A stretch of 56,009 nucleotides of DNA, the filler included, from Sphacelaria rigidula (taxonomy: Eukaryota): the NCBI GenBank assembly GCA_964200075.2. It is 5 parts of 5 records of this genome, joined end to end, with 100 filler letters (N's around TTAATTAATTAA, not from the genome) between each part and the next. Parts side by side here need not be neighbours in the genome. Positions count along the whole stretch, not along the records: positions 44,889 to 56,009 come from CAXNAA020005359.1; 4 more parts are not named here. One strand, given 5' to 3'. The notes under the pieces are model-generated. The model ran no database searches, was not told the DNA's origin, and was given only the letters and a program-made list of their open reading frames with translations. The position numbers and the translations under genes were made by a program. Below are positions 11,124-56,009 of this stretch, one piece after another (position 1 is the stretch's first letter; each line of letters begins with the position of its first letter).

Positions 11124-11223
11124 NNNNNNNNNNNNNNNNNNNNNNNNNNNNNNNNNNNNNNNNNNNNTTAATTAATTAANNNNNNNNNNNNNNNNNNNNN
11201 NNNNNNNNNNNNNNNNNNNNNNN
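11124..11223. other. Artificial contig linker N44-TTAATTAATTAA-N44
   Basis: Identical 100-bp spacer at all four gaps; the core gives stops in six frames. Confidence 0.98.
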
Positions 11224-18200: not shown

Positions 18201-18414
18201 GGCGGAAACCTTGACTACGGATAGGGGGGGTGGATTGGTGGTGGGGTCTGTGAATATGTCGGCGGGGGGCGCGGCGGACGGTGCTGTGGGGCGGGGGGAG
18301 GGATTGAGAATTATGTCAGATTGGGAAGAGTTTTGGGATGAAGAGGTGGAGGCTTCGTACTACTATAACTCGGTCACTCGTCAGGCACAGTGGGTTCGGC
18401 CGGACGGTTGGTAG
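15249..18414 (+). CDS. 3' exons of a low-complexity protein with a C-terminal WW domain
   Basis: Phase-consistent exons 15249-15368 (weaker acceptor), 16851-16930 and 17917-18414. The product ends SDWEEFWDEEVEASYYYNSVTRQAQWVRPDGW*, a W..YYYN..T..W.P WW signature. Confidence 0.75.
16200..16490 (+). mobile_element. Non-LTR retroposon 3' end with (AATC/AATG)n tail, intronic
   Basis: T-rich tract, GTGACCACGGCCGGATCC at 16416, then aatcaatgaatgaatcaatcaat. Confidence 0.65.
16851..16930 (+). CDS. Pro-rich internal exon of the WW-domain gene
   Basis: Strong polypyrimidine tract, ttcag|CG KPPPPRGPPPPHILLAQKRRREMAAQ|gtcagt. Confidence 0.75.
17917..18414 (+). CDS. Terminal exon with WW domain (~18316-18411)
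   Basis: caacag|QQQQARGAG...WW motif, TAG stop. Confidence 0.85.
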   Translation, partial: QQQQARGAGLPKPSQDGMDSATVRRPANQQRHEGHRTGIQHLMNAGASILGCGERNKSLAAVPSSSVDSAGGRNQLSPGRRVEGVQPATTTSLPPAETLTTDRGGGLVVGSVNMSAGGAADGAVGRGEGLRIMSDWEEFWDEEVEASYYYNSVTRQAQWVRPDGW

Positions 18415-22345: not shown

Positions 22346-22445
22346 NNNNNNNNNNNNNNNNNNNNNNNNNNNNNNNNNNNNNNNNNNNNTTAATTAATTA
22401 ANNNNNNNNNNNNNNNNNNNNNNNNNNNNNNNNNNNNNNNNNNNN
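22346..22445. other. Artificial contig linker
   Basis: N44-TTAATTAATTAA-N44. Confidence 0.98.
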
Positions 22446-33567: not shown

Positions 33568-33667
33568 NNNNNNNNNNNNNNNNNNNNNNNNNNNNNNNNN
33601 NNNNNNNNNNNTTAATTAATTAANNNNNNNNNNNNNNNNNNNNNNNNNNNNNNNNNNNNNNNNNNNN
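33568..33667. other. Artificial contig linker
   Basis: N44-TTAATTAATTAA-N44. Confidence 0.98.
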
Positions 33668-35890: not shown

Positions 35891-38618
35891 AGGGGGATAG
35901 AACAAGACAGAGAGATCGAAGAACAACCAGAGAACATGAATCCAGCATCATCATTAACCCTTTTGGAACCGTTGATGGAAAAGTGGTGATTTACATTTGA
36001 CGTTTTCTTGCGCAAGATATGGATGTTGGTTGTCTTTCTGCAACTGTTGATGATGCAGCCTACCAAGGCGGTGCACCACTCTAAGTGCAAGTATTTTGAT
36101 GGGACAGACTCGTGCACCCAGGTCGAAGTGACGTTTTCCCGGTGACGGAAGATCGCATATGGGAGTTTGTACTGTTTTTCGCGAGTTCCGAAAGCGTTAA
36201 CTAATTCAAATGGTGCAAGCGCAAACGATGCAACTATTACGACACCAGCCCGGAAAACTCTTCAGTTGCGTGACTCCACGTGATGTCTGGAACTAACAGA
36301 TTACAGCAATATGCTCACCTTACCGTGACTCTGTGCCGATGAAAATATACTCCAACCTTCTATACTTTGTCGTTTTGACCGGCCTAGCTAATGCTGTTTG
36401 CCCGCTGCTGGACTTTAGGTTGCTGATCACTGCCGGTGAGATTTTCAGATGGATCAAGTCAATCGATCCGCGACGGCTGTCTCAAGAATCAACACCCGAC
36501 GCAACGCGGATATCGAACAGGGTTCCGAGGAATCGCCCAATTATACTGAGAACCACATCACCACCGTTGGTGTGTGTATATTTCACCACCTGTAATGCGT
36601 TGGATCCTCGATCCGCTGCAGTGCATAGGCGACCCGATATTTCCAAATTGAGACACTTGTCCCCTCTCATCTGCCGCTTCTTCCGAGGATTGAGCAGTAG
36701 GTACCCATATCCTTGAACATTTCGAGTTGGTGGCCTTCGGACCACGCTTAGACCGCAGCAGTTGGCGGATGATTTGCGTTCTAGGCTGAAGTATATACCA
36801 CTAACTCGGTGGTCCGAAATCAAGTCAAAACTCGCTGCTGAGCGACACTGATTGGTTTCGGTTTGGTTTCGTGGAAAGTATTCGCTTCCTTTTCTGCAAA
36901 CATTGTCGCGCCTACACATCACGTGAGTTGGCCCGGCCTCCCGCAACTATGTGTGTAAGCAAACTTCGGGCACTTCCTCCGATAGGGGGCACGACAAAGT
37001 ATCCTGGTGGTGTGCCGTGAGTTTCGATGGAAAATTGCGCAAAGCAACAGCGCGTGATACATATCGCTTTCACTCCTACCGCCTAGATTGTTCAGCACTG
37101 AGTGAGTGTTTCTGTGTGTGTAAAATGTACATACATGCGCAAGTAATGCCGCGATAGCCCCTCCCCCCGGAAGAGTGGCTGGTTTGAGGAGGCAAAATAT
37201 TCATGTGACAACAATGACAAGAGCCAAGCACACCGAGTGGCTGAGAACTCCCATGCCTGCGGTCGTTTTTGCTAGTGATTGATCGATTGGTTATCGCACT
37301 TTAAGTGACCCCAGGGATCCAGCCTTGGCTAATGTCATTGTGCGTCGTGCTGTCCGAAACCAGCTATCGTGCGCCGTACCGCCATTTTCTTCGTGGCAGA
37401 TTTCGGGCTGTTTTCTTTTGGGCGGGAAGCATCACCACGTGTACTGAAGCTGGATGGTGCATGTCTACTTTGTACTTGGCGACCGCAGGTCTGCGAAGCA
37501 ACCATGTGATGAGTTCGAGAAAACGTTACGCGTACATGTTTACGAAACTGTATCACGCGACACCGCAAACCCAGATCCAAGAATCATAGCATTGGTCAGC
37601 TACAGCACATACGCGGTGGGCGTGAGGTCATTTCTTTGGCCCTGCTCAGAGAAGATGAACGAGACCACGCCCCCTACCCCAAAACCTACCCGCTGCGTAT
37701 TGTCGTAAACACACTCCGACAGGCGAGAGGACATCAAGTACTTGCGGGGCACGCGTAGATATTCGTCATTTCTTCGCGAGCACATGGTGAGAGCGGGTTG
37801 CCTTCTGGGTCTGGTCGTACTGTCCAGTGCTCAGTCCTCTGTCTATCCAAACATTTTCTCAACAAACGCGGCCAGCCGTACTTAAGGTCGCACTACCTGT
37901 TGAGACTTCCCCGGTGTTGACAACTTAATTTGAGCTGAATGTACGTGAACGCATTAAGTGACGATGATGAGCACTGCAACACGTGGTTGCTCTCGATCTT
38001 CCACGCACGCCTGCGAGATGGAATTCGATGAAGAATGGTGCAGAAGTCTACATTTGTTCGGAAGTATTTTTTGAGGTTGAAAATGCGGTGAAACACGACC
38101 AGTGTGATAACATGGGCCACAGCAACAATTACTCTATGGCGTGGTGGAATGCGCAGCTACCCGACAGCCCTTGGAGAAGCTGTGTCGTCTAGCGGGCGGA
38201 AGGCAGGGTGCCATTGCAGTTTAGCACGTGCGATACAAAGAAGAGTGCGCGTGTCACAAGAATCACGTATTGCAAAAACGAGCAACAGCAGAACGTCGGG
38301 GAAGCCCTCGTCCTCCAACAACACCTTTTCATTGTAGATACAAAATACGACGGGGCTCCTCCAGCGGCAAGCCTTACGTACGCGGCAAAAGACACGGCAA
38401 CAAATCAGTATCTTGAATACCCAGTGCAACAAAATAATAGTATCTTGAACACCCAGTGCAGTTTTATTCAGGCCGGATATGCACTGTTGTGCTAGGCCAT
38501 ATGCGGAAGCGGTAGCAACAGTATCGAAGTCTGGGTATTCGGTATATCCGATGACACCCCCTCGGGCAGCGGGGAAAAAACTGGCGCTACGCCCAAGGTC
38601 CATTTTTATTAGAGGTAT

Positions 38619-38710
38619 CTTAAACTCGGCTCCCGCTATCCTGTTTTGTCATATTTTTCAAGTGAAAGTGATCGCGATTCATAGAAGGACCTGACCTGGC
38701 GGTCATAGGG
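38619..38710 (-). mobile_element. Degenerate ~100-bp piggyBac-like MITE
   Basis: tttttcaagtgaaagtgatcgcgattc..ggcggtcataggg resembles the reversed family core. Confidence 0.4.
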
Positions 38711-38816
38711 TCTCATCATCCAAAATATAGCGGTCAATTTCACCTGAAAAAATAGAACAACACAAAGCAAGACAGAAGATCTTCGACAATAATAGGCCGT
38801 TAGAAGCCCTCTGTAA

Positions 38817-39020
38817 TAATGCGTGATGAGCGGACCGGGTGCTTCTTGAACCGCATCGGAATTCATACCACCCCGGAACCGGCACTTTTCAAGACCGCTT
38901 TGGCCAGTCCCTTCAGGGACCGCGCCCCTGACCCTAACCCTAGCCCTAAGTCTAACCCTAACCAGAGGGGTGTTGAAACTCCGATGCAGTCCAGAAAGCA
39001 CGCGGTCCGCTCACGCATTC
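38817..39020 (-). mobile_element. Telomere-repeat-bearing MITE, copy 4 (inverted)
   Basis: Same TIRs; internal ccctaaccctagccctaagtctaaccctaacc next to gtcccttcagggac. Confidence 0.88.
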
Positions 39021-39612
39021 AGACTACACTTCCCTAAATTTGAGACCTCATCATGCAGGGCTCATGCTGCGATCTTTCCACGGGGTTTTGTACAGTCGGT
39101 ATTTCATATGTGTAAGCTGCTGTATTTCGGGAGGGCCGGTCGATCACGCCCTCGCCTTCCCGACTTCCCCCCGTTTCGCAGAGAGGTTGCGAGAAAGATT
39201 TTTATCGCAGTTGTGAACTGCGTACACGCGCAGGCATCATCCTATATCCTTCATTTTGCGGGTAAAGGCAATCAAATGACCAGATCGGCACAATGTCTTC
39301 AAGACTATATCTTACGGCAGCTAATCCGTAATTATTTAATTGTTCGATACTTTCCACGTTATCCCCCCCCAAACATGTGGCTGGTTTGGGGAGGCAAAAT
39401 CTACACGTATATCGAAGTAAGAATAGCCGAGCACAACGAGCAGCTGGGGATTCCCACGCCTGAGTTTGTTTTCGCCAATGCTGCCCACATGAGGCGCTTC
39501 ATGCAGCCTGAAACCAAGCATCAGGTACGAGTGCTGTATGGCCGTCTTTTTGGCGATAGCCTTTAGCTGGTTTTGGGGGAGGGGGTGCCGTAGAAAGTGT
39601 TTTTTGTACAAG

Positions 39613-39899
39613 TATCAGCATTTCACCACGTCTACAGACGATTTTCTCACGTGGATTGATTTTTCGGACCCCAGTCGATTGAGCAATGTTTTTCGGATAG
39701 CTCTGAGGAAACCCCGATTCGGGGGAGATGCGGGAGTCTCCCGATCTGAGCAGAAAGGTGATGAGCCTAAAGTCAACGTCCAGAGAATTGGACAATTGAT
39801 CTTACTTATAGCTAGGCGAAAAACATTGCCCAACCGACTCGGGTCCGAGAAATCAATCCAAGGGAGAAAATCGTCTGTAGACGGGCTGAAATCCTCATA
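39613..39899. mobile_element. MITE with ~85-bp TIRs and probable TA target site
   Basis: cgtctacagacgattttctc..aatgtttttcg pairs with cgaaaaacattg..gagaaaatcgtctgtagacg. Confidence 0.85.
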
Positions 39900-40789
39900 T
39901 CTATAGAGATACAGAGTGGTTGCCATAAAAAGTGGTTCAAAGATATCCGACAGCAGCGCCAGATCTTCGATAATAATAGAGTCGTTGTCTCTGTACGGTG
40001 TAGGAATTACGAGACATGGGGTTTGATCAACGAGAAGATATTGGCCCAGACTCTTGAGCAGATGGGTATCTTCTCCTCGACCAGACGACTAATAAGATAT
40101 GCGGATCACGGCCCAATTCGTCTGTATCGATGAGTTATTGCTTTGAGAGCTCAAGTCCGCGCCCAAGCGGGCCCAGCTACTACAGTAATCAGCTACGAAA
40201 TGTAGATGGTTGAGGGTGACATGTGCGGCGGAATTAGACAAAAAAAAAACAGCCGAAAAAAATTTTCGGTCACAGTCGGCTATGCCGTGTGTTGCGATTG
40301 TACAACAACACATGTCGTCCTAGGCGCGTAGTGTCTAAGATTGCACGCAGATGCGTCCCCAAGCGCGCCAAGGCGTCTGGTTGTCGTGTGCGAACCGACA
40401 AACAGTTTGTGAAGATCTCTGTGCCGAGAGTAGAGGACGACGAGACAAAAGCGAAGTTCCGGCTGAGGTTGTTGTAGTCTACATTCAACGGCACGAAGGG
40501 CAAATCAAGAGGTCGAAGTGGGTCGCCTCTCGCAACGAGGCGGAAGAAGCTACAGAGTACTGACGACTGAGCCGAGGATACGGGTTTCGTGATGAGCTCC
40601 ACCTCCTTGACGACTTTGCTTCGAACTGTACACTCCAAGAGGAAGGCAGCAGCACCATCCGTCAGGCTCCCCCCAGGCGAGTTTTGAAAAGATGTGTATC
40701 CTGGCCCATCATTTTCGAACAGCATGCATCTTGGGTTTATTTCCGTGATGCTGGGGTCACGGTCACGTATGATCGCAGTACAAGCAGCA

Positions 40790-41580
40790 CAACACCGTAC
40801 ACTGCAGTGCACTTCACTGCACTGTCATGTACTGTACCTTACTGTACTGTGCCGCACGAATCTTGGATGCTTGCACAAGCATGCGCTGTACCAGTTCGGT
40901 AATGTGTACCGTACAAGTAGCTGACGGGGTATAACACCCCCGGTCCAAAGTTGTACATGCAGGTTGCAGCGATACGTAGCGCATACCTCACTATGCAGTA
41001 CGGCATCGTACGGTACTGCACGGTATGATGTGGTAAAAAATAGCATCACACCACACTTATATTGATTTACATCCCTGTGAAAGTACAAGTCGAACGAAAA
41101 TATCCGATGCTCGGCCGGGGTCGTGCAGTACAACACCGTACAGCACCATCAGTCACTACTGCACCGTTCTGTCCACTTTGAACAGTGTCGTGCAGTACAA
41201 GTACGTGTCCAGTACCGTGCATGTTGTACTGCTCTCTACTGTACCGTACAGGCTTTGGATGCTTGCACGAGCATGCGTTAGGTCAGTTTAGCAACGTGGA
41301 CCGTAGCTGACGGGGTACAACACCCCCCGATCCAAACTTGTGCATGCAATTCGAAGCGATGCGTAGTACGTACCGTGCTGTGCAGTACGGTACCGCACGT
41401 TCCTGCACGGTATAGGACGGTACAGTACAGCACCATAACGTACTTGTGTTGATTCGTATCCCCACCAAAGTACAAACCAATCAAAAATTTGCGATGCTTG
41501 GCCAGGTTAAACAACACCGTACCGAATCCTTCAGTCACGACTGCACCGTTCCGTCCGATTTGTACAGTGATTCACAGTAT
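40790..41580. repeat. Diverged tandem repeat, ~393-bp period, rich in CAGTAC/GTACTG
   Basis: ttggatgcttgcac(a/g)agcatgcg at ~40863 and ~41255; gtagctgacggggta and other blocks recur in the same order. Confidence 0.8.
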
Positions 41581-41899
41581 CGACAAGATGAGTACAGTAC
41601 ATCAGAGTACCGTGCAGTGCACATAATGTGCTGCGCGGCACGGTGACTCGGCCATCATCAGTGGACTTGTCAAACACAAATCGGCGGTGTGCACGAAATC
41701 AGTTGAGTGACGCGAATACCTCACGTGTCGGAGTTCAATACGCCCAGGTCAATATTTGACATGTAGATAACGACTCGTAGCGCATACCGAGCTATACGGT
41801 GTGGAACTGTACAGCGGGATCTTGTGCCTCATCTGCACCCTTCTTGATGTGTCCACGGAGGAATCATCGAGCGTTCCCGTAAATGTATCCTTTGTTGCC

Positions 41900-42426
41900 T
41901 CCTCCCTACCATCGCGTATGAAATCCGCAACCCACAGGTGGAGCAGGTTTGGTGGGAGCGTGTGCGGTGTCATGTGGATCACGCCAGAAGCCCCGGAGGA
42001 GCGAGGTTTTGATCCTGTCCTCCCCAACGTACGTGACGTCAAGCACGAGAGAACGGCTCCACAGCACACGGTGGAGAGTCGGGGCAACAACCTCCTCCTG
42101 TCGCCCGAATACCATCTGAACGTTGCGGGGGTGGGGATCGCATACCCTCGCAGTATTTCCAAGCCCAAGTTCCGGCGAGAGATCAACGATGAGGTGCCGA
42201 AGAATGTTCATGCAAACATGATGAAATCCATGTGCAAGGAAACCATCCCGACCACATGAAGGGTGCGCCGCTTTGCCCGCCGCGCGCGAGACCACTGCCG
42301 GGCATACTTTGCGGCAGCAGTTGGCAACGCGATGGGATCGAAGCATCTGATCGAGACGATGCGCAAGGTTTGCGAGGTGCACTGCAACACCCTGGACATG
42401 GAGCCATCTTGGATCGACAAGCGATA
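41900..42426 (+). pseudogene. C-terminal remnant of an IS630/Tc1-mariner-like DDE transposase
   Basis: QVWWER (shifted frame)..DVKHERTAPQHTVESRGNNLLLSPEYHLNVAGVGIAY..SKPKFRR..*RVRRFARRARDHCRAY resembles the motif series VLxERG..DF..E..RGH....PK(Y/F)H.E...IE..W..RRFARR..Y; the catalytic E is lost and there is a stop and a frameshift. Confidence 0.7.
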
Positions 42427-42589
42427 GTGTGGGGACCGACGACGGTGGGGGGCAGGGTTATAGTATATCGTGCAGAATCCTTTGTGGTTGTTTAACTTGA
42501 TGCGTTGTTCTATGTTTCTTTCCCGCTCGTTTCCCTCGACCGATGTGTTGTGACCACTTGTATTTTCGTACGATGGAGGCAACGTTTCA

Positions 42590-42920
42590 TTTGTGGCTTG
42601 GCTATCGTGACTGGTCGTGTGATTTTGGGAGTACTATTCTGTGACAGAGATATACTTGCCCTGGTTGAATTCAGTGGTGGCCTGATTTGCTCGACCTTGT
42701 CAAAAATACTTTCACCTTCTTGCCGTCGATTGTTCTGGTGTAACATACATAATATTTGAATGTTTGCGGCAGAGTATCATGTGTGGTTCGGCGGTTGTAG
42801 TTGTGTGATTGTGAGTACCATGGCGTGTCTGAGAAATCCTTGCGCTCGTTGTATTTAGTGGCGGCTTGATTTTCTCGACTTTCCTTGTGTTGGTATTCTC
42901 ACGCCGTTTTTGCCCGCACG
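42590..42920. repeat. Diverged direct repeat, ~190-bp period
   Basis: agtggtggcctgatttgctcgac at ~42674 versus agtggcggcttgattttctcgac at ~42857. Confidence 0.55.
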
Positions 42921-44350
42921 TGTAGAGTGAGTAATTGAGCAAGACTTGAACGAGTCGGCGGTGCTCACTTTTTGTCCCAGTTCACTAGCCCCGCGCCAAC
43001 GTTCGCGTGATATTGAGCTAACGATGATGCCTGCCGATTGATGACCCCCTTTGTCCAAACGTTTGTCCTGGCAACGGTCTGTTGTATTGGACGATATTTA
43101 TCGATATTTTTCTACCCCTGCTCCCGTAGAAGAGAATAAGTTTTGTTCAGGGTACGATATCTTCTGCGTGTGCTCGCACGTGGTCATCACCAGCCCTGAA
43201 CCCAATGAACTCTAGCATGGTTTTCGAGGCAATTTCGATGCGATATGCTGAACTCGTACAAGGATTTTGCCTATTTCCACACGGGAACCAATTTGTCGAT
43301 CGACGGCACAGATCGAATTCATCCACAGCTCGAATTCCAGCACGAATAAAAGTGGATGTGTATGACACTGATCGATTTTTTTCCATCTCAGCAAGAAGTT
43401 CAACAAACCAGAAGCACTCCCGCCTGAAGCCGTAGCGGATTTTGCTCGTATACCATATACCCATCAGGGAGTCTGTTTCGCACATCTTCATACAGGAACC
43501 GGCTTTCGACAGAAAAGCGGGATCGCGCTGCTCAATTTTGGGTCGTTTACTGTGAAATTTTGACACAATGTACATGAGGTATGTGCAAAGCCCCTATTTC
43601 CCCCCCATTTCCCCCTTTTGTTTCCCTTAGCACTCGAAAGTTCTACGGTCGATAGATATTGGGAAAAGAAGAAGGTCATGCTCAGGACAATCCTTAATGG
43701 GTGTTTTCAAATTGTTACGGGGCAAGTATCGCGTTTATCAGGCGGGTATTATCGACTGCCAATGATCTACAAACACACAATTTTCGGGTCTAGCACGATG
43801 ATTAGGCAAACATTGAGAAGAACCATTCCTTTTCACTCGTTCACGAGAACAATCAGGACTGCTTCAATCAAGCATGCGTACCCACGGCCAGAACCTGGGG
43901 TTGGGTAGTCGCGAGACCTCCGAAAATCGATCAGGCCGTTTGTCGTTCAATGTTGAGTGCGAAGGTGATTTTGAATCGGAATTTGGAGCGGATGCCTAGT
44001 GTGCCCCGATCCCCAAACTTTGGAATCGAACGTTCGTTGGGATAAGCGGTGGCATGCGAAAGCACTTTCGGAAAATGTCGACTACGAAAAAATTGCAAGA
44101 ATCCCTTATTTTGGCTGAGCACTACCGTACAACGAGGCTTTGCAATTTTTCCACCTCGGAAAGTCTTGCCGTATTTCCCGAAAGGATTCCGGCGCCCTTC
44201 CCGACGTTTTGTAGTGCACCGACTTCGACTTTTGGCCAAACGAAGCGATTTGTCAAACAGCTCACAGAAACGTTAGAGGTATACCCAAAAAACATATACC
44301 GACGATCTCAGACAACCATGGTATCGATAGTACCAGTGTAGTGCATGGGA

Positions 44351-44401
44351 GGCCAGTCCCTGCAGTGACCACGCCACTGACTCTAAGCCTAACACTAATC
44401 C
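44351..44401 (-). repeat. Telomere-cassette core without the MITE TIRs
   Basis: ggccagtccctgcagtgaccacgccactgactctaagcctaacactaatcc aligns to the interior of copy 4. Confidence 0.65.
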
Positions 44402-44788
44402 ATGCTACGAATGCTTTGAAAAAGACATGTTCAAGACTGATTGTACGTGAGCTTTGAACTTGTTCGGGGACGGTAGGGTATTTATCATATGTAGTACCTC
44501 CAGACAGCTTCATAACCCCCCCACCTACCGCTGCTGTCTCTTACCTGCTCCTCATGCTTCTGTGTTGCCACTTCAGCAGTGAAACGGCTTAAAAAATGTC
44601 ATCGGCTAGGCGTGGAGTAAAGCGGAAAGTTATTTCCGACCAAGCGCAGGCAACGGGCCGGGCAAACAAAGCGGAGGACGTACCAACGTAAGGAAGGAAA
44701 GTTTGGGGCCAGATAAACTTGCTGAACTCTTAACAACAAATTGTGAGAATTGAGGTTTAACTTCGAGATGAGGCTCAAGCCTAAAACA

Positions 44789-44888
44789 NNNNNNNNNNNN
44801 NNNNNNNNNNNNNNNNNNNNNNNNNNNNNNNNTTAATTAATTAANNNNNNNNNNNNNNNNNNNNNNNNNNNNNNNNNNNNNNNNNNNN
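44789..44888. other. Artificial contig linker
   Basis: N44-TTAATTAATTAA-N44. Confidence 0.98.
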
Positions 44889-45230
44889 TCTTTATCTTTT
44901 ATAAATCGTCATTGGGCTGAAGAGTGGTTCGTAGACCCGCAATCGCATCACCCTATAGCCTTCTATTCAGGGTCATCATCCACCCTGTAACACCCCAACC
45001 GTCCCCAAGCATCCAATCAGATAGTCCTAGCCAAAGGACATATTCTAGACTCTTGGCCCTCTCGCATCCACATCAACATCGTCTGTGCAATTCTCCTGCA
45101 TCAACCTGTGTGTATCAACCTCAAACCTGTGTGTATCAACCTCAAACCTGTCTGTGTCAACCCTCTACAGACTTGTCAAAGACTCCCCAGTGCGGTACTG
45201 CAGTCATATTCCACTATACCTCTGATAACA
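44889..45230 (-). repeat. Putative 3' LTR (partial), following a PPT at 45238-45231
   Basis: Minus strand reads aaaggggg|TGTTATC; contains a 21-bp tandem repeat (~45100-45162). No second LTR is present to confirm. Confidence 0.45.
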
Positions 45231-46189
45231 CCCCCTTTGACCCACATCACTGTATTTTGCCAGCTATGTTTCCATCTAGTGATCCACTGAAATCTGAGCT
45301 CACCACATCAGCCCATCCTGTGAACACAAAGTTTGATCATAGCCGGACCTCACTTTGTGCAAACAACATAGACCGGAACGAGCTCAGTTATTAACCCCCG
45401 ACCCGCTTGTTCGTACTTTCCCTGTAACTAACAAAGACACCCAACCCCGAACACCGACTGACTCCGGATATGTCCGCCTCCAAGGAGTGGGAAATCGACG
45501 GAGATGACGGCTCCGGCTCGATATCCAACTATGACGAAAAACTAAAACCAGCAGAAAACACTCGACGAGACTTCGGTATCACTGTCTAGATCCTACATGA
45601 GATATCACAAAACCAAGACAAAGACGAATGAAGACATTCCGAAAATTGAAGAAACATCTTATGTTGCTACGAGTTTCCAGAGCTACCGCCTCCGGACACA
45701 ACCGCTCGCAAGGAGTGGGGAAATCGGTAAAGCAGCGGTAGCTCCGGCTCCAAATTTCAATCCACCCAAGAGAAACTCCACGTGAAAACCACAAATGGAC
45801 ATGAGTCAAATTTTCTCCGAGCTCCAGCCATTACATCACTCATTCGCGTCGTCCTCCTGCTCGTTCTTGCATGCAGCTTCACGGCGCTCCAAACAGCTCT
45901 TGTCGCCGCGTTCCGGATAGCCCCCCCCTCCATGATTGCCCTTATCCCAACATCAAACTCGCACGTCCGCCACGTCTAGCTCCACCTCGATGTAATCCAG
46001 CCCTGTCATCCACATGCGCGGAATATTTGACGGTTCCGCCGCATGAGAATGTGCCCACCCCAGTTCCAGCACCAAACAAAATCCCTGCCCATTCACCAGC
46101 CATGCGCGAAATATTTAGCGGTTTTCCGCAGCATGTGAATGTGCTATCACTAGTCCCCCCGGTTGACCCCGGCTCTCATCGAGGGCGGC

Positions 46190-48168
46190 TCACTTCAGAT
46201 GTACCGCGTATTTACGCCCCAAATACATCATGCGGAGAGTGTGCGGACGCTCCCGCTGACCTGGGTTCTCCTCCAATCCCACCACCTCGGACAACTGCCA
46301 ACCTGCGGAAGCCGTTTTGAAATACACGTAAGCGCCCACAATGTCAGGGTTGTACACATCGAGCCCATCCTTCCGCCGTTCCGACACCTTATAACCCGGC
46401 GCCACGTAATATCCGCCCCGTTCGTGCGCTGATATGCGCCGCGGCAAGTGAATGCGGTATTTCCGGTATTGCGCATTGTCCCCTTCAACCTGCGTGGGTT
46501 CGCCCAACCAATACTTCGAAATTACCTGCCGGCCGTACTGTTCAAGGTCAGTTTCATGCTCCTACCTAGGAACACCCAAGCCGCCCCAATACGTCAGGTA
46601 TTGTACCGCTAGCTTACCACCCAAACCCCGCGACAACCTGTGTTTCACCAGTTTATCCGGCAAAATTCTGTGAGTATCCAACTCCATCGTGACGTCTCCC
46701 GCCGTGAGATGCAGAGGAGGCAACTGCTCAGAATATTTGTTCATCACATATTGACTGAGCCCCCAGGCAGAAATCTCAGTTTGTCCGGCCCCTCATGGGG
46801 GTTGTAACACCTCTTACACCTCGCCACTGACACCCCGGAATTCGTGTTTATCCCTGGCTCGTTTCGCCGAATCTCCAACAATAGTAGATTACTGCTCACC
46901 TGTTCACCCTCCGAGATTACCCCCGGTCCAACCAATAAAATTTTGTACGGCCCCGTCCAACACTGAGCCAGCCTCGCTGACAAAGCCGAAGACGTCCGGG
47001 CGGTACCCGACGTCACCTGCACCGCCTTACCCCCCGAGGCGATGGTGCTTCTGTCGTCATACACAAATGACCACTGCCCCGCTTACTATTTTGGCCGGCG
47101 GTTTGCCATTTCCTCAATACCCTGGTTCTTGGCTTCATGTTTTGCTTTGATAAAATAATCTTCTTGCCTCACCAACTCGTACGCCTCTACCTGTCGATAT
47201 CTCATCAGCTGGAGATAATCCAGCTGATCGGCCTTCAAACCCTGGTGCCCCCGCACCCCCCTACCCTCCAGAATGGTCATGGGCATGCGCAGGTAGCGTC
47301 CAATATGTACCTCATTTATTTGGAGGCAACCCGGTACCCCTACTGATGTTATTGTTGTGTGCTGAGATTGCATGCATTAGAGACTCATCCCAGTTGCTCT
47401 GATCGTCCACCACAAAAAATGACAGCATTTGACACGAGGTGTGATTCAACCGCTCCACCATCCCATTCGTCTGAGGGTGATACGAGCTTGTGAACCGCTT
47501 TACCGCACCCATCATTTTATACACCGACCTACACACCGCGGAAGTGAACTCCGCCCCTCGATCCGACAAGAAAGTGTGCGGGCAACCCCATCGTGGCACA
47601 TAGTCCCCCACTATGCCGCACACCCAGTAGCCGAGTGCTCTTCAAAGGTGATCGCGTGCCCCTCCGCGTGCCTACTAAACAGATCCACCATGAGGAAGAT
47701 GCGTCTGTTACCCCTCTTTATTTTTGGCAAAGGGCCCAGGAAATCAAAAGCTACCATTTACCCTGGCCGACTCGGTAGTGGTAGCGAGACTAAAGGCCAC
47801 CGCACCGTGTACCAATCAGATTTCTTGGCCTGGCATGAATAACAGCGTCGAATCCAGAATTTCACATTCTCTTTCATCCCTATCCACCAATAGTACCGTT
47901 GCAGAAGAGAGAGAGTCACTTTTGCCCCCAGATGCACCGCATCCTTTTGCGTTTGGGCCATTACCCAGGGCCTCAACAACAAGGGAACATAGGTTATCAC
48001 CGGTTCGTCTCCGGGGTATCGCTCAAAAATACCCGGGTTCCGATCCTCCCACCCCTCCGGCGCGACCGTCAGCTTTTTCACCAACAGTTTACCCCCGTCC
48101 GCCAACTCAAGCAACTCCCCTTGTTTTAACAACGCTCGGAGCTCCTTTTCGTCCATCCCGCTACCCAC
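46190..48168 (-). pseudogene. Gypsy integrase with chromodomain and extra C-terminal domain (disrupted)
   Basis: HLG..YYWW..CYSCQ zinc finger; DFLGP; LSDRGAEF; YHPQTNGMVERLN; WTGPYKI; QYLTYWGGLGVPR*EHETDLEQY. Confidence 0.9.
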
Positions 48169-49260
48169 CGCTTTCCCCTCGCCTTCGAGAGTGTGGTCTT
48201 TCCCTGCGAGAGATAGACGGCAGCCGTACGAGCGGTCAGATCAGTAAGTTGGATTTGCGCCCAGTCACTTGCGGACTTGGCACACAACCGCTCCCCAAAA
48301 TTACACGCTTCCGCCGCCTCTAGAGTGAGCGCCGGCGTACCTGAACCGTCCTCTTCGGTCGACCTCGCCTCCTCATCTGAGATCACAAAAACTTCCGAGC
48401 CCGCCGTCTCGTATAACAAATACTTACCCACTTCAGTAACGGGGCAAGCATGCAAGCACAAGCCCGGTTCCCACTGTCCACACACCACATCGGTAACACT
48501 CGGGGAGAGAAGCCGTGAGTCATCCTTCACCACTTCCGGTCCCTTCCAGCCCAGTGTAGAGCTTGATGACTTAAGTATTTCCTGAATCCGATTCCGTGTG
48601 GCATCTGCTATCTCTGACGACGTCAGTGGAGCAGCCGGATGTCCACTCCCCCGCCTCTGAAAATTACCCAGGGGAGCAAGCCCATCTAGGCTTGAAGCAC
48701 GGGGACCCGGCCTCACAGAGGGAAGCCCATCTAAGCTGGCAACATGGGAGGAACCAAAATCCCGCGGCGCCACCCCGCTAGCCCCGATAAAGTAAACATC
48801 TAAATCAGCAGGGTCAGAGATGCGAAAAAGACCACTTACATCTTCGTCGCTGTGAGCAAGAGGAAGGCGCGACAGCATGTCGGCGTTGGAGTTAGCCACC
48901 CCCAGCGTGTAGAAAATCTCATAGGTGTAAGCACTGAGAAAATCTTGCCAACGCTGGACCCTGGGCACCTTCTCCGCAAGACTGAACAAACTGCGCAACG
49001 GTTGATGGTCGCTGAAAATTTGGAACGGAATCCCGTGGAACAACGGGCGGTTTTTCTTGACAGCCCAAACAACCGCCCCCGCTTCCAATTCGGTGGCCGT
49101 CCAGTTACGCTCGTTAGGCAAAGTACTGCGGCGCAAAAAACATAGCGGCCACACGTCACCTTCCGCATTACGTTGCTCCACCACCGCCCCCAGACCATCC
49201 TTGCTCGCGTCCGTGACCAACATGAAAGGACGACCCCCCGACACCGCTCCACCGTAATCC
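48126..49260 (-). pseudogene. Gypsy RNase H plus long linker
   Basis: LVTDASKDGLGAV, ATELEAGAVVWAV, SDHQPL, NADMLSR; frameshifted from RT near 49260. Confidence 0.92.
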
Positions 49261-52200
49261 GGAAAAGCGGACCGGTCAACTCCCCCAGAATTTCGCGCAC
49301 CGTTTCCTCATGTTCCGGCGTGAGATGAAACTCAACCTCCTTCTTCAACATCCCGTTAATGGATTTAGTGCGAGCCGCCATTTTCGGGATGAATTTGCGG
49401 TAGTAACTCAACCCCCCCATAAGCGAACGCAACTCAGTCACGGAAGTAGGCATCGGCATGAGGCGCAGCGCATCTACCTTCGTAGAGTCAGGCGAAATTC
49501 CGTCCGCCGAGATGCGATGACCAAGGAAAGTAACCTCCCCCGCCCCCACGTGAGCCTTCTTCGGCGCCAATTTAAGGTTGGATTTTGTGAGGCGTTCCAA
49601 GAAGCCCGACAAATCACTCACATGTGCAGCCCCATTTGCACTGAACGTGCAAATATCATCGATGTACAGACGGCACCGCATCAAACCCTCACATACCCGA
49701 GTCATGATGTATTGAAACCACCCCGGGCTCCCACTGCATCCCATTGGCATCACCAACCATTCGTACAAGCCCGATTGAGTACACACCGCGGTCAGTGGAA
49801 TGGTGTCAGGGTGCAGGGAGATGTTAAAATAGCCCGACAGAATATCGAGGCAAGTGAAAACCTCGGCACCCCCGAGCTCATCCAACAGCTCGTCGATAGT
49901 CGGAATGGGCAAGACCGGGATTACAGTGGCGTCATTAAGCTTCCGACAATTGCAAGTCAACCGAATACCTCCATCCTTTTTGTTCACCACCACCAACGGA
50001 GAGCTCCAACTGGAGCCAGAACGTCGCAGGAGCCCCGCCGCTAACAACCGGTCAATTTCAACCTGCACCTTCTGTTGCGTGGACGGATTGTGCCGGTACG
50101 GCCGTTGTTTGATGGGGCTAGCCCCCGGCTTCAGCTCGATTTTGAACGGATCCACCGTACAGTACCCCAAGTCCATTTTATTCACCGATAATCTGTGAGA
50201 GAATTTGCACAGCACATCCGCCAAATTATCAATATCCTCCACCTGCCAGAACTTGTCCTGTAAACCGAAAGTGATGCTATGTAAGTGAGGAGGGATACGA
50301 CCCCACAATCGACGGAACGCGGCACGTTTCTCCATACATAGATCACCGAACATGGCCTCCGGCGGCTCCGGCAGTGCCGGCTCGACTGCAAAAACGGCAG
50401 TCGAAGCCGGGTCCGGCAACCTGGAAATTGTCGCATCATTCAGCGAGCAAGGTACCAACGGTTGCCCTGCTGACCCCAACTTCATCCCTGGTAAGACCAA
50501 CGCAGACTCTACATCTGTAAACCGCAACGGAATAACTGAATCCCCCGCCTCCACAACCATTTCTGACGGGGACCACCCCGCCTCGAAATACACATAATAA
50601 TCACCTTCAGGGGCAGCCCCTCCCTTTGTCGGACGCAGTGTGACGGGAACCCACGTCAACTCCTGCGTTACCGCCAACTCAGTTTCCCCTGAAAAAACCA
50701 CGACAACCTTCTCGTCAGACATCGTCGACTGTTCAATCATGCCCCCGGCGTTTTGGACCCAGCGATCAAACGGGGTGGGTCCAACAGCCATAGCCGGCCT
50801 TGCGAGCGACATGATAGTTTTATCCTCACTAACATCACGATACGAGCGCACCGGGAACTGAGCCAACCCATCGCGACCCAACAGCAAATCAAACGACATC
50901 GTACCCTCCGGGACAATATGTGCGTACATCGCGAAACATGCACTCGTGCCTGTTGTCCGACCTTTGCGTGAGCCGTCCACGAAACGGATGTTCAAACGCA
51001 CCTGTGAGCATGTTCTCAGAGGCACCCCATTAAACCCGCCCCACGATACGGGATTAATCTCCCGCATCACGTCACCAGATCCCGCCCCGTACGCGACCAT
51101 GGACAACCATACCTTCTCCAGGATAAATGTCGCCGGACTCCCACTGTCGAGCAAAGCCGAGCAATCCCACATGCGGGTCGCCTTAGGCCCGCCAATCACC
51201 CTCACCCCAGCCGTGTTCCGAGCGCGGTCGATGGATACATATCCGCCGGAGACCTCAGCTACTTCCGGTAAGAACGTCCCTTGAACCCCGCGCGGTACCT
51301 GGCAGGGGATGTGATCGGGGGTACGAGGCGGTGGATCTATACTATTCAAACGATTTCCCGACGGGTCTAGAACATAGATATGCTCTTCCACGCAAATCGG
51401 ACTACCTTCGTCCGACACTCCAGCGACGGATCGTGCAAGGTGAGCCGCCTCGGCTGTACCTGTGCAATGGGAGGGACTAAACGGTTTCACGTGGTTGGGT
51501 AAATCAACCACACTGCCAGGCACCGAGCCCGCAGTGATCCCCGCAGTGACCTCCTCCGAAAGTGTGTTCAGAGTGGTTGGCCTTTCCACTGAAGTCCTCC
51601 GCAAGGATGGTCACTCAAAGCCTGGGCCGCCCCCGGCTGGCACGGAGTCCGGGGGAGCAAGCCCCCACTTGGTAGCACATGAAACCGCCCCCTTCTGAGG
51701 GTAACGGCGCCGAGAACAACTTGAGCCCCGAGCACCGTGACGCGACACGCTTTCCTGACCCAGGACGAATTCACCTGTTGGGCTCTCCAAATCATGCGAC
51801 GGTACCGTCACACCAGGACCGTCCTTGTCCGTAGCGTCTGTCGGAGGTAAGCAACGCTCACCGCGACAGCAGGCCTGCACCAGTGACCCTTGTGTCCGCG
51901 CACCCACACCACTGTGGGAAGAAAGACCATCCGGGGCGCTACTCCGGGATTGGTCCCCTCCCCGTCGGTCGATGTCCACCCCGCGAGGCCGGCGCGCGGT
52001 AGACGTCGCACAAAGCGCCGGGGCTGCCTCCGTCTCGCAAGTATCCCTCAAAAGTTGATCAGACCCCGCGGCTACCTTCAACACAGAAACCCCCCCCCGC
52101 ACCGTTACCGACACCCCCAGGCAGACTGTACCCTGCCTCCTTGCCATTGTCCACGCTGTGCGGACGGGAGAGGACAGAAATTTCGCCACATACGGCAGAC

Positions 52201-52411
52201 GCAGCCTGCTGCGGAACCAATGACACAGCCTACCGACCTTGTTGAGCTCTCTGAGCATCATGTTGCACTGACCCTTGTGCTGCCGGTAAAGTGGCCAGAA
52301 CTTTACCGTCGCGCCCTCATTTCGTTTGAGGGTAATCGTCGATAAAGTAAGAGCGCAGGCGGCGCTGCCACCGCACCCATTTCTGGCGGACTTCCTCCGG
52401 CGTCCCCTCAC
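49261..52411 (-). pseudogene. Gypsy pol: aspartic protease and reverse transcriptase
   Basis: ALLDSGS (~51145), LLLGRD, WSSPLVVV, MPMG, YIDD (49666-49655), FLGH. The same frame extends up to 52411 through a TGA at 51613-51611. Confidence 0.93.
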
Positions 52412-55400
52412 CCATCGAGTGATGTATTAAACCCAATTTATGAATATACTCCTTCGGACACTATCGAGCCAAAGTGTGGTCGGCGCTGCCGCAGTTGAGA
52501 CAATACGGCCCAAATGCTTCCCGCGCTTTGTTCTTCAGCTCGCGGACCTGTCCGAATTAGCCCGCCCCACCATATACACATATTCCATCTCCCGATCCTC
52601 GAAGGGGAAATCGCGCATCTCCGTGATGCTCACCACGGTCCCGCTAAAAGACCTACCCTGACCCGACTTAGGCGGATAACGGCTCCGCGCCTCTCCCCCT
52701 CTAGTACCCTGCACGAGTCGCGGCGCGTGCGCCCGCATCGTGTTGGATCTGAACTGGTCCAACTTGCCCATCAGCGACTCGAGGGAGTCGAACGGCGTCG
52801 CACAATCATCGCGCCCCGCAAACACGTGGCCACTAATCCCGGGGAACTGGTCCTGAATGGCCATTTCAATTGCCGACTGCACTTGCGCCTGATCCAGAGT
52901 CATCTCGGCCCCCAGACACTGAAAATTGCTCACCAGAATCCGGAGGTCGCGCAAATAATCGGCGAACAAAGACCCTTCCGCTGCCCGGAAATTGATCAAC
53001 TCCCGGAGCACGGCGTCAAGTGTCAGATGGCTGAATTCACGGCTTAACAACCGCACCAGAAACGCCATAGCCTCTGGCCCAGAAGCCCCCTCCCCCTGCA
53101 AACGAGACACGTGAGCGATTACGTCCCCGATCCGAGCCACGATTCCCGGAGCGTCCGGTGCCACTGGCCGCACGGCACGCCGCAAGTGTTTTTGGAGGGT
53201 CTTTTCCCAACCCCGCGTCCAACGCGTGGGATGGGTGTCTCACAATGAGCCGCATTGCCGCTACCGAATCTTTTACTCCCTCCACTAACGCCACCAACTG
53301 CTGCATGTTGTGAGTGGACGATAACGGTAACTTCGGTAGGTCCGCCAACAAATCCAGTTTGAGTTTCGCATACCCCTGCGCAATATGCGCGGTATGCAAC
53401 GACGGGAACCCATCCCTCGAGTCGGCAGTCCCCAAGGACTCTCCCCCGCCCCGAAAACTCTCGTCGTTGGGTAGACCAGCGACAACACAACCCTGCAACA
53501 CCTCCCAGGCCCATCGGGTGCCACCCACCTCTTCGTTTCTCGGTGCTCCGGCCCACCCGACCGAAAACCCGGTTGACTGCGGGCACCCTCCGCAGGCGCC
53601 AGCGCCCCTCCACCTTGGGCGTCCTGAACCGCGAGTTGCGCCAACACGCCTCCCCCGCTCCGTAGCAGCTCCCGCTGCTCCTCCTCCCAAGACTGCAACG
53701 CCCGGTGAGGAGGATACGACCCCTTCAACGCCCGGCTCTGCCGGCAAAACCCCGGCGATGACACCCCCTAGGGACAGCGGGCGGCGCAGTACTTAAATTC
53801 CTCGTCCGAGAGGCGAGGCAGCGCAAGCACCCCGTCCGCCCCCCAGTCACCGGAGCCCCGAGGCGCCGCGAGGGACCCCCCACCCTGCGCCCCCACCGCG
53901 GGCGGAACCAGGGCACCACGCGACCCGTCAAACGCCGCCCGGGCAAACGAACCCCCCACGCCAGTGGCCGCCACGCCATCGGTCGGGCCAGAGATAGAAC
54001 TGGCTGCCTCCGCCGCCACCCCGCGAGCCGCAACCGATACAGCCGTATTAGAACGATCCGTCGCCGTCCCACCCGGTGGAGCGGCAGCCGACATTACCCC
54101 GCCGACCCCCGCCCCTTACGTGGGAACCAGCGGAGCCGCGGGCGGGACCATCGACGGTCCCGCTGCGACCAAGGCTCCCGACCCCAGCGCGACCCCCGGG
54201 GAAGAACCCCTTACCCCTATCACGGGCCGAGGGGCGGGCACGCAGTTAACCGCCGGCTCCGCGTCCCGCAGCAACTTCAGCTGCGGAGCCCACTTACCGA
54301 ACAAGGGCCCCACCTGCTGGGCGCACGCCAAGATCACCGCCTCACGGTGCGAACGCGCTTCCATGAAGTGCAAGGCTTCTTGCTCAACCTCTGCCCGCGT
54401 GGCGAGTTGGGCGGCCTCCGCCCGTTCCAACTCCGCGGCAGCCTCCGCGGCCTCCACGCCCGCGACCGCCACGTGACACACCGCGGTCTGGACGGCCAGT
54501 TCCGCCGCGTCATCCTTCGCGACGGCCCCGTCTAGACCCGCCTTCCGAGAAGCCGCGACCTCCGCCGCCCGGGTAATGTCGGCCATGGCCTCCGGTGAGG
54601 CACGAGACAATTTATCCGGAGTCGGATCGCGCAACACGTCAAACCGGCCCCCAGTCACCGCCGGACGGGACACACGGGACACATCCGCATACGACCGGGA
54701 ACCCGACACCCGCGTCCAACCGTTATCCCGTACCCCCGGCATTTTCTCCCCCGGCGAGCGGGAACCGCTCGCAAGTACTCTCCCTACAGTCCGAGAACCC
54801 ACTTACGACTGGGAGCCCGCCGGATTTCCACCCCGATCCTCATCCGCCTGCAACCGACGAGCGAAAAATTCGTCCGCCGCCAAGGCGTTACCCTCCGTTA
54901 ACCACCGTTCCTCCAGGGTCAACGTGGCCGACATCTTACATGCCTCCACCATCAACCCTAACCTCACCTCCTGCTCGTGTACCATCAACCGCGGCGGTGG
55001 TGACGGCGTCCGACGGTCGTCGTCCCCCATCACACGGCGGCCGCGCGGCGACGCGGGCCCCGCCGCGGCCTCCACCTCCGCCTCGGGGGCAGCGTTCTCC
55101 GTCTCTACCAACTCCTGATCCACATTGCCTGGTACGTGTGAGGTACGAACGGCAACGTGAGGACCAACAGGCGTGCTGCGGGGGACAGACGACACCTCAC
55201 TACCACCCTCCTAAACCGACACATCCGACGCAGAGGGCACGCCAGAACCCCCGCGAGACCCCGAGCGGCCACGTGCGATCAACAACGCACGCCGACCTAC
55301 CTCCCGCGGCGGAACCGCTACCGCATGCCCGAAACTACTCGAGCGGGAGGGACTTTCCCCTGCCTCGATCTGCGCAAAAAGCACCGCTTCAAGGCCGGGC

Positions 55401-55870
55401 GTTTCATCAATACTCGACTTTTCCGCCCCACGAGGCCTGAAGACTGAAAAACCACCGCGAGCATCAAGACCCTCCACCAGGGGGTCAGGGGCCGAAGCGA
55501 CCCCACCCCTACCCTTACCCCCGTTACCCCTACCCACAATGACCGTACCCACCCCACCCGTACCCAACGGGGACGACCCCGCCGCCCCCGCCGTACCCTC
55601 CGGCGACGGAGGGAAGTTCCCACTAGCATTCCCGGGGCGGATCTTACCCGCAGCAGCCCAAAGTTCCGAACGAGCCGGCGAACGAATAGCATGAGCACTA
55701 CGAATAGACGAATCAGAACCAGACTCACTACTCGCAGCACGCGCCGCGTGCGCAGCGAGCGAACTCGGAGGCACGGCCAGACGCGGGGCCGTAGCCGCCC
55801 GCTGTGATCGCGTGACCGCACCCCTCCCCCCACCCTTACCCTGAGTACCCGTCGTACCTGACATGACCAA
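52317..55870 (-). pseudogene. Very long disrupted ORF1/gag with capsid-like region and zinc knuckle
   Basis: ORFs 55870-55211, 55195-54803, 54802-54116, 54094-53768 and 53764-53285 are all in one frame, separated by single stops. Frameshifts lead into a helical capsid-like part (53185-52535) and CLNCGSADHTLAR*C (52502-52458). Confidence 0.75.
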
Positions 55871-56009
55871 CCACCCTCGAGCAGACAGCCGAAATCCCCA
55901 AGCAGAAAACGCAGCAGACCAGTCGTCGACGCCACTCTGAGGAACCTGAATTTCACTTTGGAGACACGGAGGTTCCCATTTCTCGCGTGTAGATTCTTGT
56001 ATCTGCGTT

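Follow-up and report, generated by a model that had tools for sequence, protein, structure and literature searches.

A conserved family-wide domain behind a divergent, probable chromodomain at the integrase C-terminus of Ty3/gypsy elements found in brown algae

Reader domains fused to integrases are the clearest case of mobile elements choosing their landing sites. Integrase chromodomains steer integration (PMC6317226, PMC3605345, 10.1101/2021.11.30.470311), and two types have been described: type I, which has a Tyr-Trp-Tyr (Y-W-Y) aromatic cage, and type II, in which the first and usually the last aromatic residue is lost and the partner is unknown (PMC3605345, PMC6317226). The usual marks of silent chromatin are reported to be missing from brown algae, and chromodomain lineages outside the chromoviruses and the oomycete Chronos elements have been reported from them (PMC12477816). 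The available text on Ectocarpus describes four Gypsy lineages, all with reader domains, of which three have putative C-terminal chromodomains (PMC12477816, Genome Biol 2025). Gypsy-10_Ec32 has a C-terminal Tudor domain and is called the first transposable element (TE) with a Tudor domain (PMC12477816), and ECR elements with a full aromatic cage have also been described (10.64898/2025.12.07.692804, PMC11541908). Here, we analysed a stretch of 56,009 nucleotides from Sphacelaria rigidula (GenBank assembly GCA_964200075.2; hereafter the window). The region of interest, located in the last piece of the window (44889-56009, minus strand), is the broken 3' end of pol in a dead Ty3/gypsy element, whose family is found in brown algae. 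Behind a probable chromodomain, this family carries a tail that, judged by comparison of sequences, is a real, constrained and family-wide domain absent from Pfam.

An earlier note on this DNA placed a chromodomain behind the GPY motif of the integrase, with a TAG at the conserved Trp and an open frame beyond it. The strings it quoted are all present on the minus strand. The open reading frame (ORF) at 46562-46792 (minus) closes with the TAG at 46564-46562, and the relatives do have Trp at this position, in 36 of 36 aligned sequences (column 66 of alignment A4). Past the TAG, ORF 46190-46561 (minus) runs in the same frame for 123 codons (46561-46193, EHETDL...YAVHLK) to a TGA at 46192-46190. 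The frame therefore continues past the chromodomain as the note had described, but AVHLK is no natural end, given that relatives go approximately 34 residues further. These extra residues reach a conserved G-x-W-C-W-H-x-H motif, followed by a short basic end.

Database searches showed that the tail belongs to a protein family. The read-through of the window (P0001, in which the TAG is written X) aligned to the intact 556-aa integrase fragment P0002 with an E-value of 2e-56 and 49% identity over 95% of the query, and with Trp at the X. When the 123-aa tail alone was compared with 1.84 billion representatives using phmmer, 73 proteins were matched at E<=1e-3, including 22 at <=1e-10 and three at <=1e-30 (best 3e-36). 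One of the 73, a 1116-aa repeat protein (P0075, E 8.7e-4), was taken as a chance match after its sequence was read; the other 72 align as one family. The use of P0007 as query added 20 more relatives among 186 candidates. A single-protein scan of metagenome contigs identified one related locus (L001), and no related locus was found in viral contigs. The named members belong to two brown algae, Pylaiella littoralis and Laminaria digitata. In a profile search, all four longer proteins with the tail carried integrase domains and no non-TE protein was found, which is weak evidence since only 8000 word-sharing candidates were scored.

Intact relatives hold the integrase, chromodomain and tail in this order and in one frame, with 33-59% identity to the tail of the window. 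One such relative is P0135, an intact 2057-aa Gag-Pol polyprotein whose closing parts are the chromodomain and tail. It comprises reverse transcriptase (RT; residues 760-917), RNase H (980-1115), a stretch of ~300 residues without a known family, the integrase zinc domain (1427-1482), rve (1498-1598), GPY (~1770), the probable chromodomain (~1867-1920), a basic linker, and the tail, which extends to the last residue. Alignment A4 contains 58 rows, of which 34 cover the chromodomain, 46 the putative barrel that forms the core of the tail, 24 both of these without a break, and 38 the C-terminal end (C-end). All seven rows with >150 upstream residues carry integrase, chromodomain and barrel, and six of the seven reach the C-end. 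The earlier note had left room for the segment to be unconserved in frame in intact copies; it is conserved there, and this objection is ruled out. In the intact metagenome relative L001, a purine-rich run (1265-1300; a candidate polypurine tract) directly follows the pol stop, which indicates that the tail is coded wholly within the element and not in the long terminal repeat (LTR).

The strength of the constraint was assessed from identities among intact members. Within the main clade, these are 70-80% for the integrase core, 57-69% for the chromodomain, 58-76% for the linker, 58-73% for the barrel and 52-64% for the C-end; against the distant clade, they are 64-68% for the integrase core, 44-46% for the chromodomain and 36-40% for the barrel. 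The barrel and chromodomain values are similar, so the constraint on the tail is about equal to that on the chromodomain. A maximum-likelihood tree of linker and barrel was built from 32 of the 58 rows, those covering >=90% of the region, and it separates three groups more than one change per column apart. These are a distant clade of six rows (support 100/100), a group of four rows that includes the window (95/87), and 22 rows (87/76); the last group is drawn open, so that the third grouping is not well supported. The tail is conserved across these deep splits. Its best kept residues are the Trp (47/48), Gly (45/49) and Gln (42/47) of a G-W-Q motif, an Asp (41/49), another Gly (44/52), an Asn (36/46), and a C-terminal Cys (39/40) flanked by two aromatic residues. 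Aromatic residues are conserved at five columns of the tail, and several are kept in all three groups. A zinc site in the tail was considered but rejected, since the distant clade has not retained the His residues. The linker ahead of the tail (46406-46507, minus), which is predicted to be partly helical, is strongly basic, its 33 residues carrying a net charge that averages +5.0 across 40 rows.

The window copy itself is dead and makes no protein. The core of its tail domain (46196-46405, minus), a putative beta barrel, is open, and the C-terminal stretch of the relatives is kept but broken by the premature TGA. This decayed end (46093-46195, minus) contains a one-base frameshift near 46155-46160, after which three stops in the shifted frame (46152-46144) are the codons at the W-C-W columns, and the natural pol stop of the family corresponds to 46095-46093. 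In total, the tail region has five stops and one frameshift. Compared with P0095, the integrase core has a further eight stops and a garbled stretch at ~47380-47640, and the frame of pol changes near 49268, 48190 and 46770. A decayed second copy of the final ~57 nt of pol (46101-46157) lies 88-90 nt downstream of the original, at 46013-46067 (minus), and is 76-87% identical to it.

To place these breaks, positions 46000-47200 were compared with Logan contigs from four public runs, three labelled organism A and one labelled 'algae metagenome'. All run contigs covering the five tail stop positions carry another letter there, including a sense codon in place of the chromodomain TAG, and a one-base difference is also seen at 46155. 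Since the run contigs differ at all five stops and at the frameshift, the tail breaks are private to the window copy. Among the 25 listed differences within 46096-46792, a script classified five as a stop in the window and sense in the others, 10 as synonymous and 10 as nonsynonymous; 56 more differences in the 1.2 kb lie beyond those listed. Mutation bias resembling repeat-induced point mutation was rejected as a cause of the changes in the window copy, the differences from the run contigs being symmetric transitions. Run contigs also carry joints that skip 55 or 77 nt at the duplicated pol end, which indicates that copies of the family differ in this duplication. No RNA data set is listed as carrying this sequence, the 'RNA?' label of four runs being a guess.

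The domain between the GPY module and the linker (46508-46672, minus) is probably a chromodomain, albeit a divergent one. Its assignment draws on the alignment of relatives, Pfam and profile comparison with the Protein Data Bank (PDB). Pfam Chromo (PF00385) did not match the read-through of the window, and in three of seven relatives it scored 17.3-17.9 bits (E 0.003-0.005), below the gathering score of 25.1. At E<=10, it matched seven of the 75 rows of alignment A2, 13 of which cover the whole range. The A2 profile had chromodomains as its top three PDB matches (2m2l, E 0.044; Swi6, 2rso, 0.089; CHD5, 6guu, 0.11), with the fourth match (1.3) at the level of noise. The nearest Atlas feature clusters to P0084 were also Chromo (score 0.80), which is a lead only by the search tool's own figures. 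A crude secondary-structure call predicts a strand over the Trp motif, with a helix following the second Trp. The likeness to chromodomains proposed in the earlier note is thus upheld, weakly, but Pfam stays below threshold and one of the three cage aromatics is present. With reference to the Y-W-Y cage of HP1, the middle Trp is found in 35 of 35 sequences, both HMMER alignments put an aliphatic residue at the first site, and the third site is Leu, Val or Ile in 25 of 34 (L16, V6, I3) and aromatic or His in three.

For the tail, the most likely fold is a small SH3-like barrel of the type seen in chromo and Tudor domains, an assignment that is plausible but unproven. Chromo-like and Tudor-like 'Royal family' domains are described as five-strand SH3-fold barrels with an aromatic cage and often a capping helix (PMC5906684). 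A crude, profile-averaged Chou-Fasman call of the family predicted a helix within the linker, followed by five short strand segments, of which the last is the W-C-W stretch. The five strand segments and the size of the tail would fit a small SH3-like barrel. The L-D-x-G turn of the tail may resemble the D-Y-G turn of Tudor domains. Other origins of the tail were also considered. It did not match Chromo or chromoshadow hidden Markov models (HMMs), and it was rejected both as a duplicate of the chromodomain (hhalign probability 0.1-0.2%) and as a copy of the family's own GPY-type integrase C-terminal region (hhalign probability 1.3%).

Several points weigh against a chromatin-reading barrel. Neither a Tudor-like family (clan CL0049) nor any other recurring Pfam family was found in the tail, in 0 of 75 rows at E<=10. 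A profile of the tail alone gave noise against the PDB (E 0.27-1.1), larger profiles gave nothing for the tail, and an Atlas feature search in which Chromo clusters were skipped returned no usable match for it. The secondary-structure guess, which uses Chou-Fasman parameters, is weak. The preceding chromodomain is without two of the three cage aromatics, and its reading of methyl-lysine is therefore doubtful. An organism name is attached to only two members of the family. In addition, Ectocarpus is reported without 5-methylcytosine (5mC), H3K27me3 and H3K9me1/2/3, with H3K79me2 and H4K20me3 tied to repression and repeats (PMC12477816, PMC13076208). Consequently, the host group may lack the classic ligands, and classic reading of H3K9me is unlikely.

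It is proposed, with the balance standing about even, that the integrase extension acts as a target-site tether in which the tail is an SH3-like barrel. In intact members, the integrase with its zinc domain, DDE core and GPY-type C-terminal domain (CTD) is extended by three conserved pieces: a divergent chromodomain with the middle cage aromatic only, a strongly basic linker of ~33 residues, and a predicted beta-rich domain of ~105 residues that closes with a C-terminal W-C-W strand and is so far seen only on these integrases. Jointly, the CTD, the cage-poor chromodomain, the basic helix and the tail may keep the integration complex attached to chromatin, and the tail would then be a second contact beside a weak chromodomain. 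Its partner could be a histone tail, the DNA of the nucleosome or a protein of chromatin. The precedents for this proposal are the integrase chromodomains that steer integration and the tandem small beta-barrel of yeast Ty3. We infer the fold of the tail, its ligand and its role in target choice from these comparisons, the main alternatives for the ligand being a new mark or docking that is independent of histones.

A more specific version can be formulated, which as a whole is distinctly improbable. Brown-algal Ty3/gypsy elements of this family would carry a two-part chromatin tether, its first part a chromodomain stripped of most of its cage and its second part, the tail, a new chromo/Tudor barrel that is an orphan in sequence and has an aromatic cage of its own. 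The tail would read H4K20me3 or H3K79me2, standing in for the missing H3K9me, H3K27me and 5mC, and new copies would be steered into chromatin that is already silent. If true, it would make this integrase the first of any retroelement to bear two distinct reader domains in tandem, and would open a way to study the recognition of silent chromatin in brown algae.

Four other explanations were weighed. That the tail is non-functional, a chance open frame or a read-through into untranslated sequence, might be suggested by the death of the window copy and the silence of Pfam over the tail. This is refuted by matches with E-values down to 3e-36, by relatives in which the tail stays in frame and is 33-59% identical to that of the window, by conservation equal to that of the chromodomain, and by sense codons in the family wherever the window copy is broken. 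A different possibility, somewhat unlikely and compatible with the tether, is that the tail is the Tudor domain already reported for Ectocarpus Gypsy-10_Ec32. That element, a Gypsy from a brown alga, is 11,528 bp long and was assigned its 'C-terminal TUDOR domain' with InterProScan or HHpred (PMC12477816), and its size would fit the window element, which exceeds 9.9 kb; several other Ec32 Gypsy families are, however, as long or longer (12-14.5 kb). Pfam Tudor was found in none of the 75 rows, and the available description treats the Tudor lineage as separate from the three with chromodomains (PMC12477816). The family may be one of the published Ectocarpus lineages, even Gypsy-10_Ec32, the comparison being by description only. 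If the two tails are the same, only the preceding chromodomain adds to what is in print.

The two remaining explanations concern the partner of the extension. The chromodomain and tail may bind a host protein or DNA and read no histone mark, in the way that the cage-less chromodomain of yeast Ty3 integrase docks on Brf1 and target DNA. Only one of three cage aromatics is kept in the family, the linker is strongly basic, and the host group is reported to be without the classic repressive marks (PMC12477816, PMC13076208), all of which favour docking. This chromodomain is reported to pair with the Ty3 CTD in a tandem small beta-barrel, which binds Brf1 and DNA with no need for histones (PMC8632968). 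The aromatic residues, Asp and Asn of the tail are nevertheless kept across the three groups and would suit a methyl-lysine or methyl-arginine cage; overall, docking is unlikely. Service to the integration complex, through oligomerisation or binding of the element's own DNA or RNA in the manner of an extra integrase CTD, is quite unlikely. In retroviral integrases, the CTD is a small barrel that drives oligomerisation and has both DNA and histone tails as ligands (PMC6468294), and the tail is seen only on integrases in the four longer matches (8000 candidates scored), whereas the comparison of the tail with the family's GPY-type C-terminal region by hhalign, given above, speaks against such a CTD copy.

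The earlier note had suggested that a chromodomain with a further reader domain is not described for LTR elements, and this is true in part. Brown-algal Gypsy elements with a chromodomain or with a Tudor domain are in print (PMC12477816), but no report of an integrase chromodomain followed by a second domain was found in the available text of the literature. A conserved extra domain behind a cage-poor chromodomain suggests a different, or second, contact. If the tail proves to be a reader, it would be a candidate recogniser of brown-algal silent chromatin and a compact module for histone-peptide tests. If instead it is a docking or assembly domain, it would extend the Ty3 theme of small barrels stacked at the integrase end. 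As the tail is absent from Pfam, annotation pipelines would miss this domain.

The window consists of five pieces of ~11.1 kb each, separated by spacers (N44-TTAATTAATTAA-N44) at 11124-11223, 22346-22445, 33568-33667 and 44789-44888, and features across a joint between pieces are not necessarily genomic neighbours. On the minus strand of the last piece, the protease-RT-RNase H-integrase order of Ty3/gypsy (Metaviridae) pol is present, with the DSG and YIDD motifs placed, and Pfam matches RVT_1 (2.8e-23), RT_RNaseH (7.2e-28), Integrase_H2C2 (3.2e-13) and rve (0.0026). The element is collinear with the intact relative P0135. It extends from 46093 to beyond 56009, thus over >9.9 kb, and its 5' LTR is not reached. 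No direct-repeat pair indicative of LTRs was found in 38000-56009, where the 11.1-kb piece stops at 56009, ahead of any 5' LTR.

Within pol, the protease and RT part (49268-51412, minus) is open in frame -2, with 46% identity and no stops against residues 282-998 of P0135 by tblastn. The aspartic protease active-site motif LLDSGS, located by motif search at 51137-51154 (minus), lies within this open high-scoring segment pair, and the YIDDI box is at 49666-49652. RNase H and the ~300-aa conserved stretch ahead of the integrase occupy 48201-49268 (minus) in frame -1, with 49% identity and no stops against residues 1002-1355 of P0135. The pre-integrase stretch, between RNase H and the integrase zinc domain, corresponds to ~48200-49000 (minus) in the window and ~1116-1426 in P0135, with motifs at 48452-48438 and 48299-48282; it had no Pfam match and no PDB match. 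The integrase (46936-48177, minus) includes the H2C2 zinc domain, the broken DDE core and the GPY module, whose motif GPYKIL is at 46953-46936.

Upstream of pol, 52000-56009 has 61-66% G+C and long open frames in several frames. This region gave no Pfam match and no likeness to the N-terminus of P0135, and neither a CCHC knuckle nor a NADAR domain was found upstream; the gag of the window copy was not identified. Downstream of pol, and possibly in the 3' LTR, 45103-45162 is a 21-nt tandem repeat with 2.9 copies and 94% matches. In other parts of the window, an open frame at 17818-18414 (plus strand) in a different piece ends in a WW domain (Pfam PF00397, E 1.6e-07) and probably represents a host-gene exon. 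The stretches 40833-40913 and 41225-41305, 392 nt apart, form an 81-nt direct repeat with 72% identity.

Compared with chromoviral and other integrase-fused chromodomains (e.g., in MAGGY, Tf1, and plant Tekay, Reina and Galadriel), the family has the same placement of a chromodomain directly behind a GPY-type integrase C-terminus. In published descriptions, those integrases end at or close to their chromodomain, whereas here a basic linker and a domain of ~105 aa follow. The cage state of the family, with the middle Trp only, matches the published definition of type II (PMC3605345, PMC6317226), although type II chromodomains are reported from plants only and this family is brown-algal. The reader-domain Gypsy elements of Ectocarpus (ECR-1, Gypsy-12_Ec32 and others with a chromodomain, and Gypsy-10_Ec32 with a Tudor domain) resemble the family in host group, in the idea of a reader fused to the integrase C-terminus and in being long. 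As described, each of these lineages has one reader domain (PMC12477816, PMC11541908), to which the window family adds a second domain. ECR-1 keeps all three cage aromatics according to its description (PMC11541908), the window family keeps one, and no NADAR domain was found in the window family.

Among proteins of other kinds, HP1 and Swi6 have the same order of a chromodomain, a basic hinge or linker and a second small domain, and the Swi6 chromodomain is among the top three PDB matches noted above. The chromoshadow dimer uses two helices. The tail of the family differs in giving no chromoshadow match and in a crude call that ends in strands rather than in two helices. Tudor-like barrels of clan CL0049 are similar in size to the tail, which has five predicted strand segments and a conserved aromatic cluster with Asp and Asn, but differs in having no HMM or PDB sequence match to them. 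The best PDB match of the integrase core of the family is the yeast Ty3 integrase (7q5b, E 3e-12), of which only the catalytic core aligns. Like the window family, Ty3 has a cage-poor chromodomain behind the CTD, and in Ty3 the tandem small beta-barrels are reported to set the integration site (PMC8632968). The Ty3 integrase stops at this chromodomain, whereas the integrase of the window family continues for one domain more.

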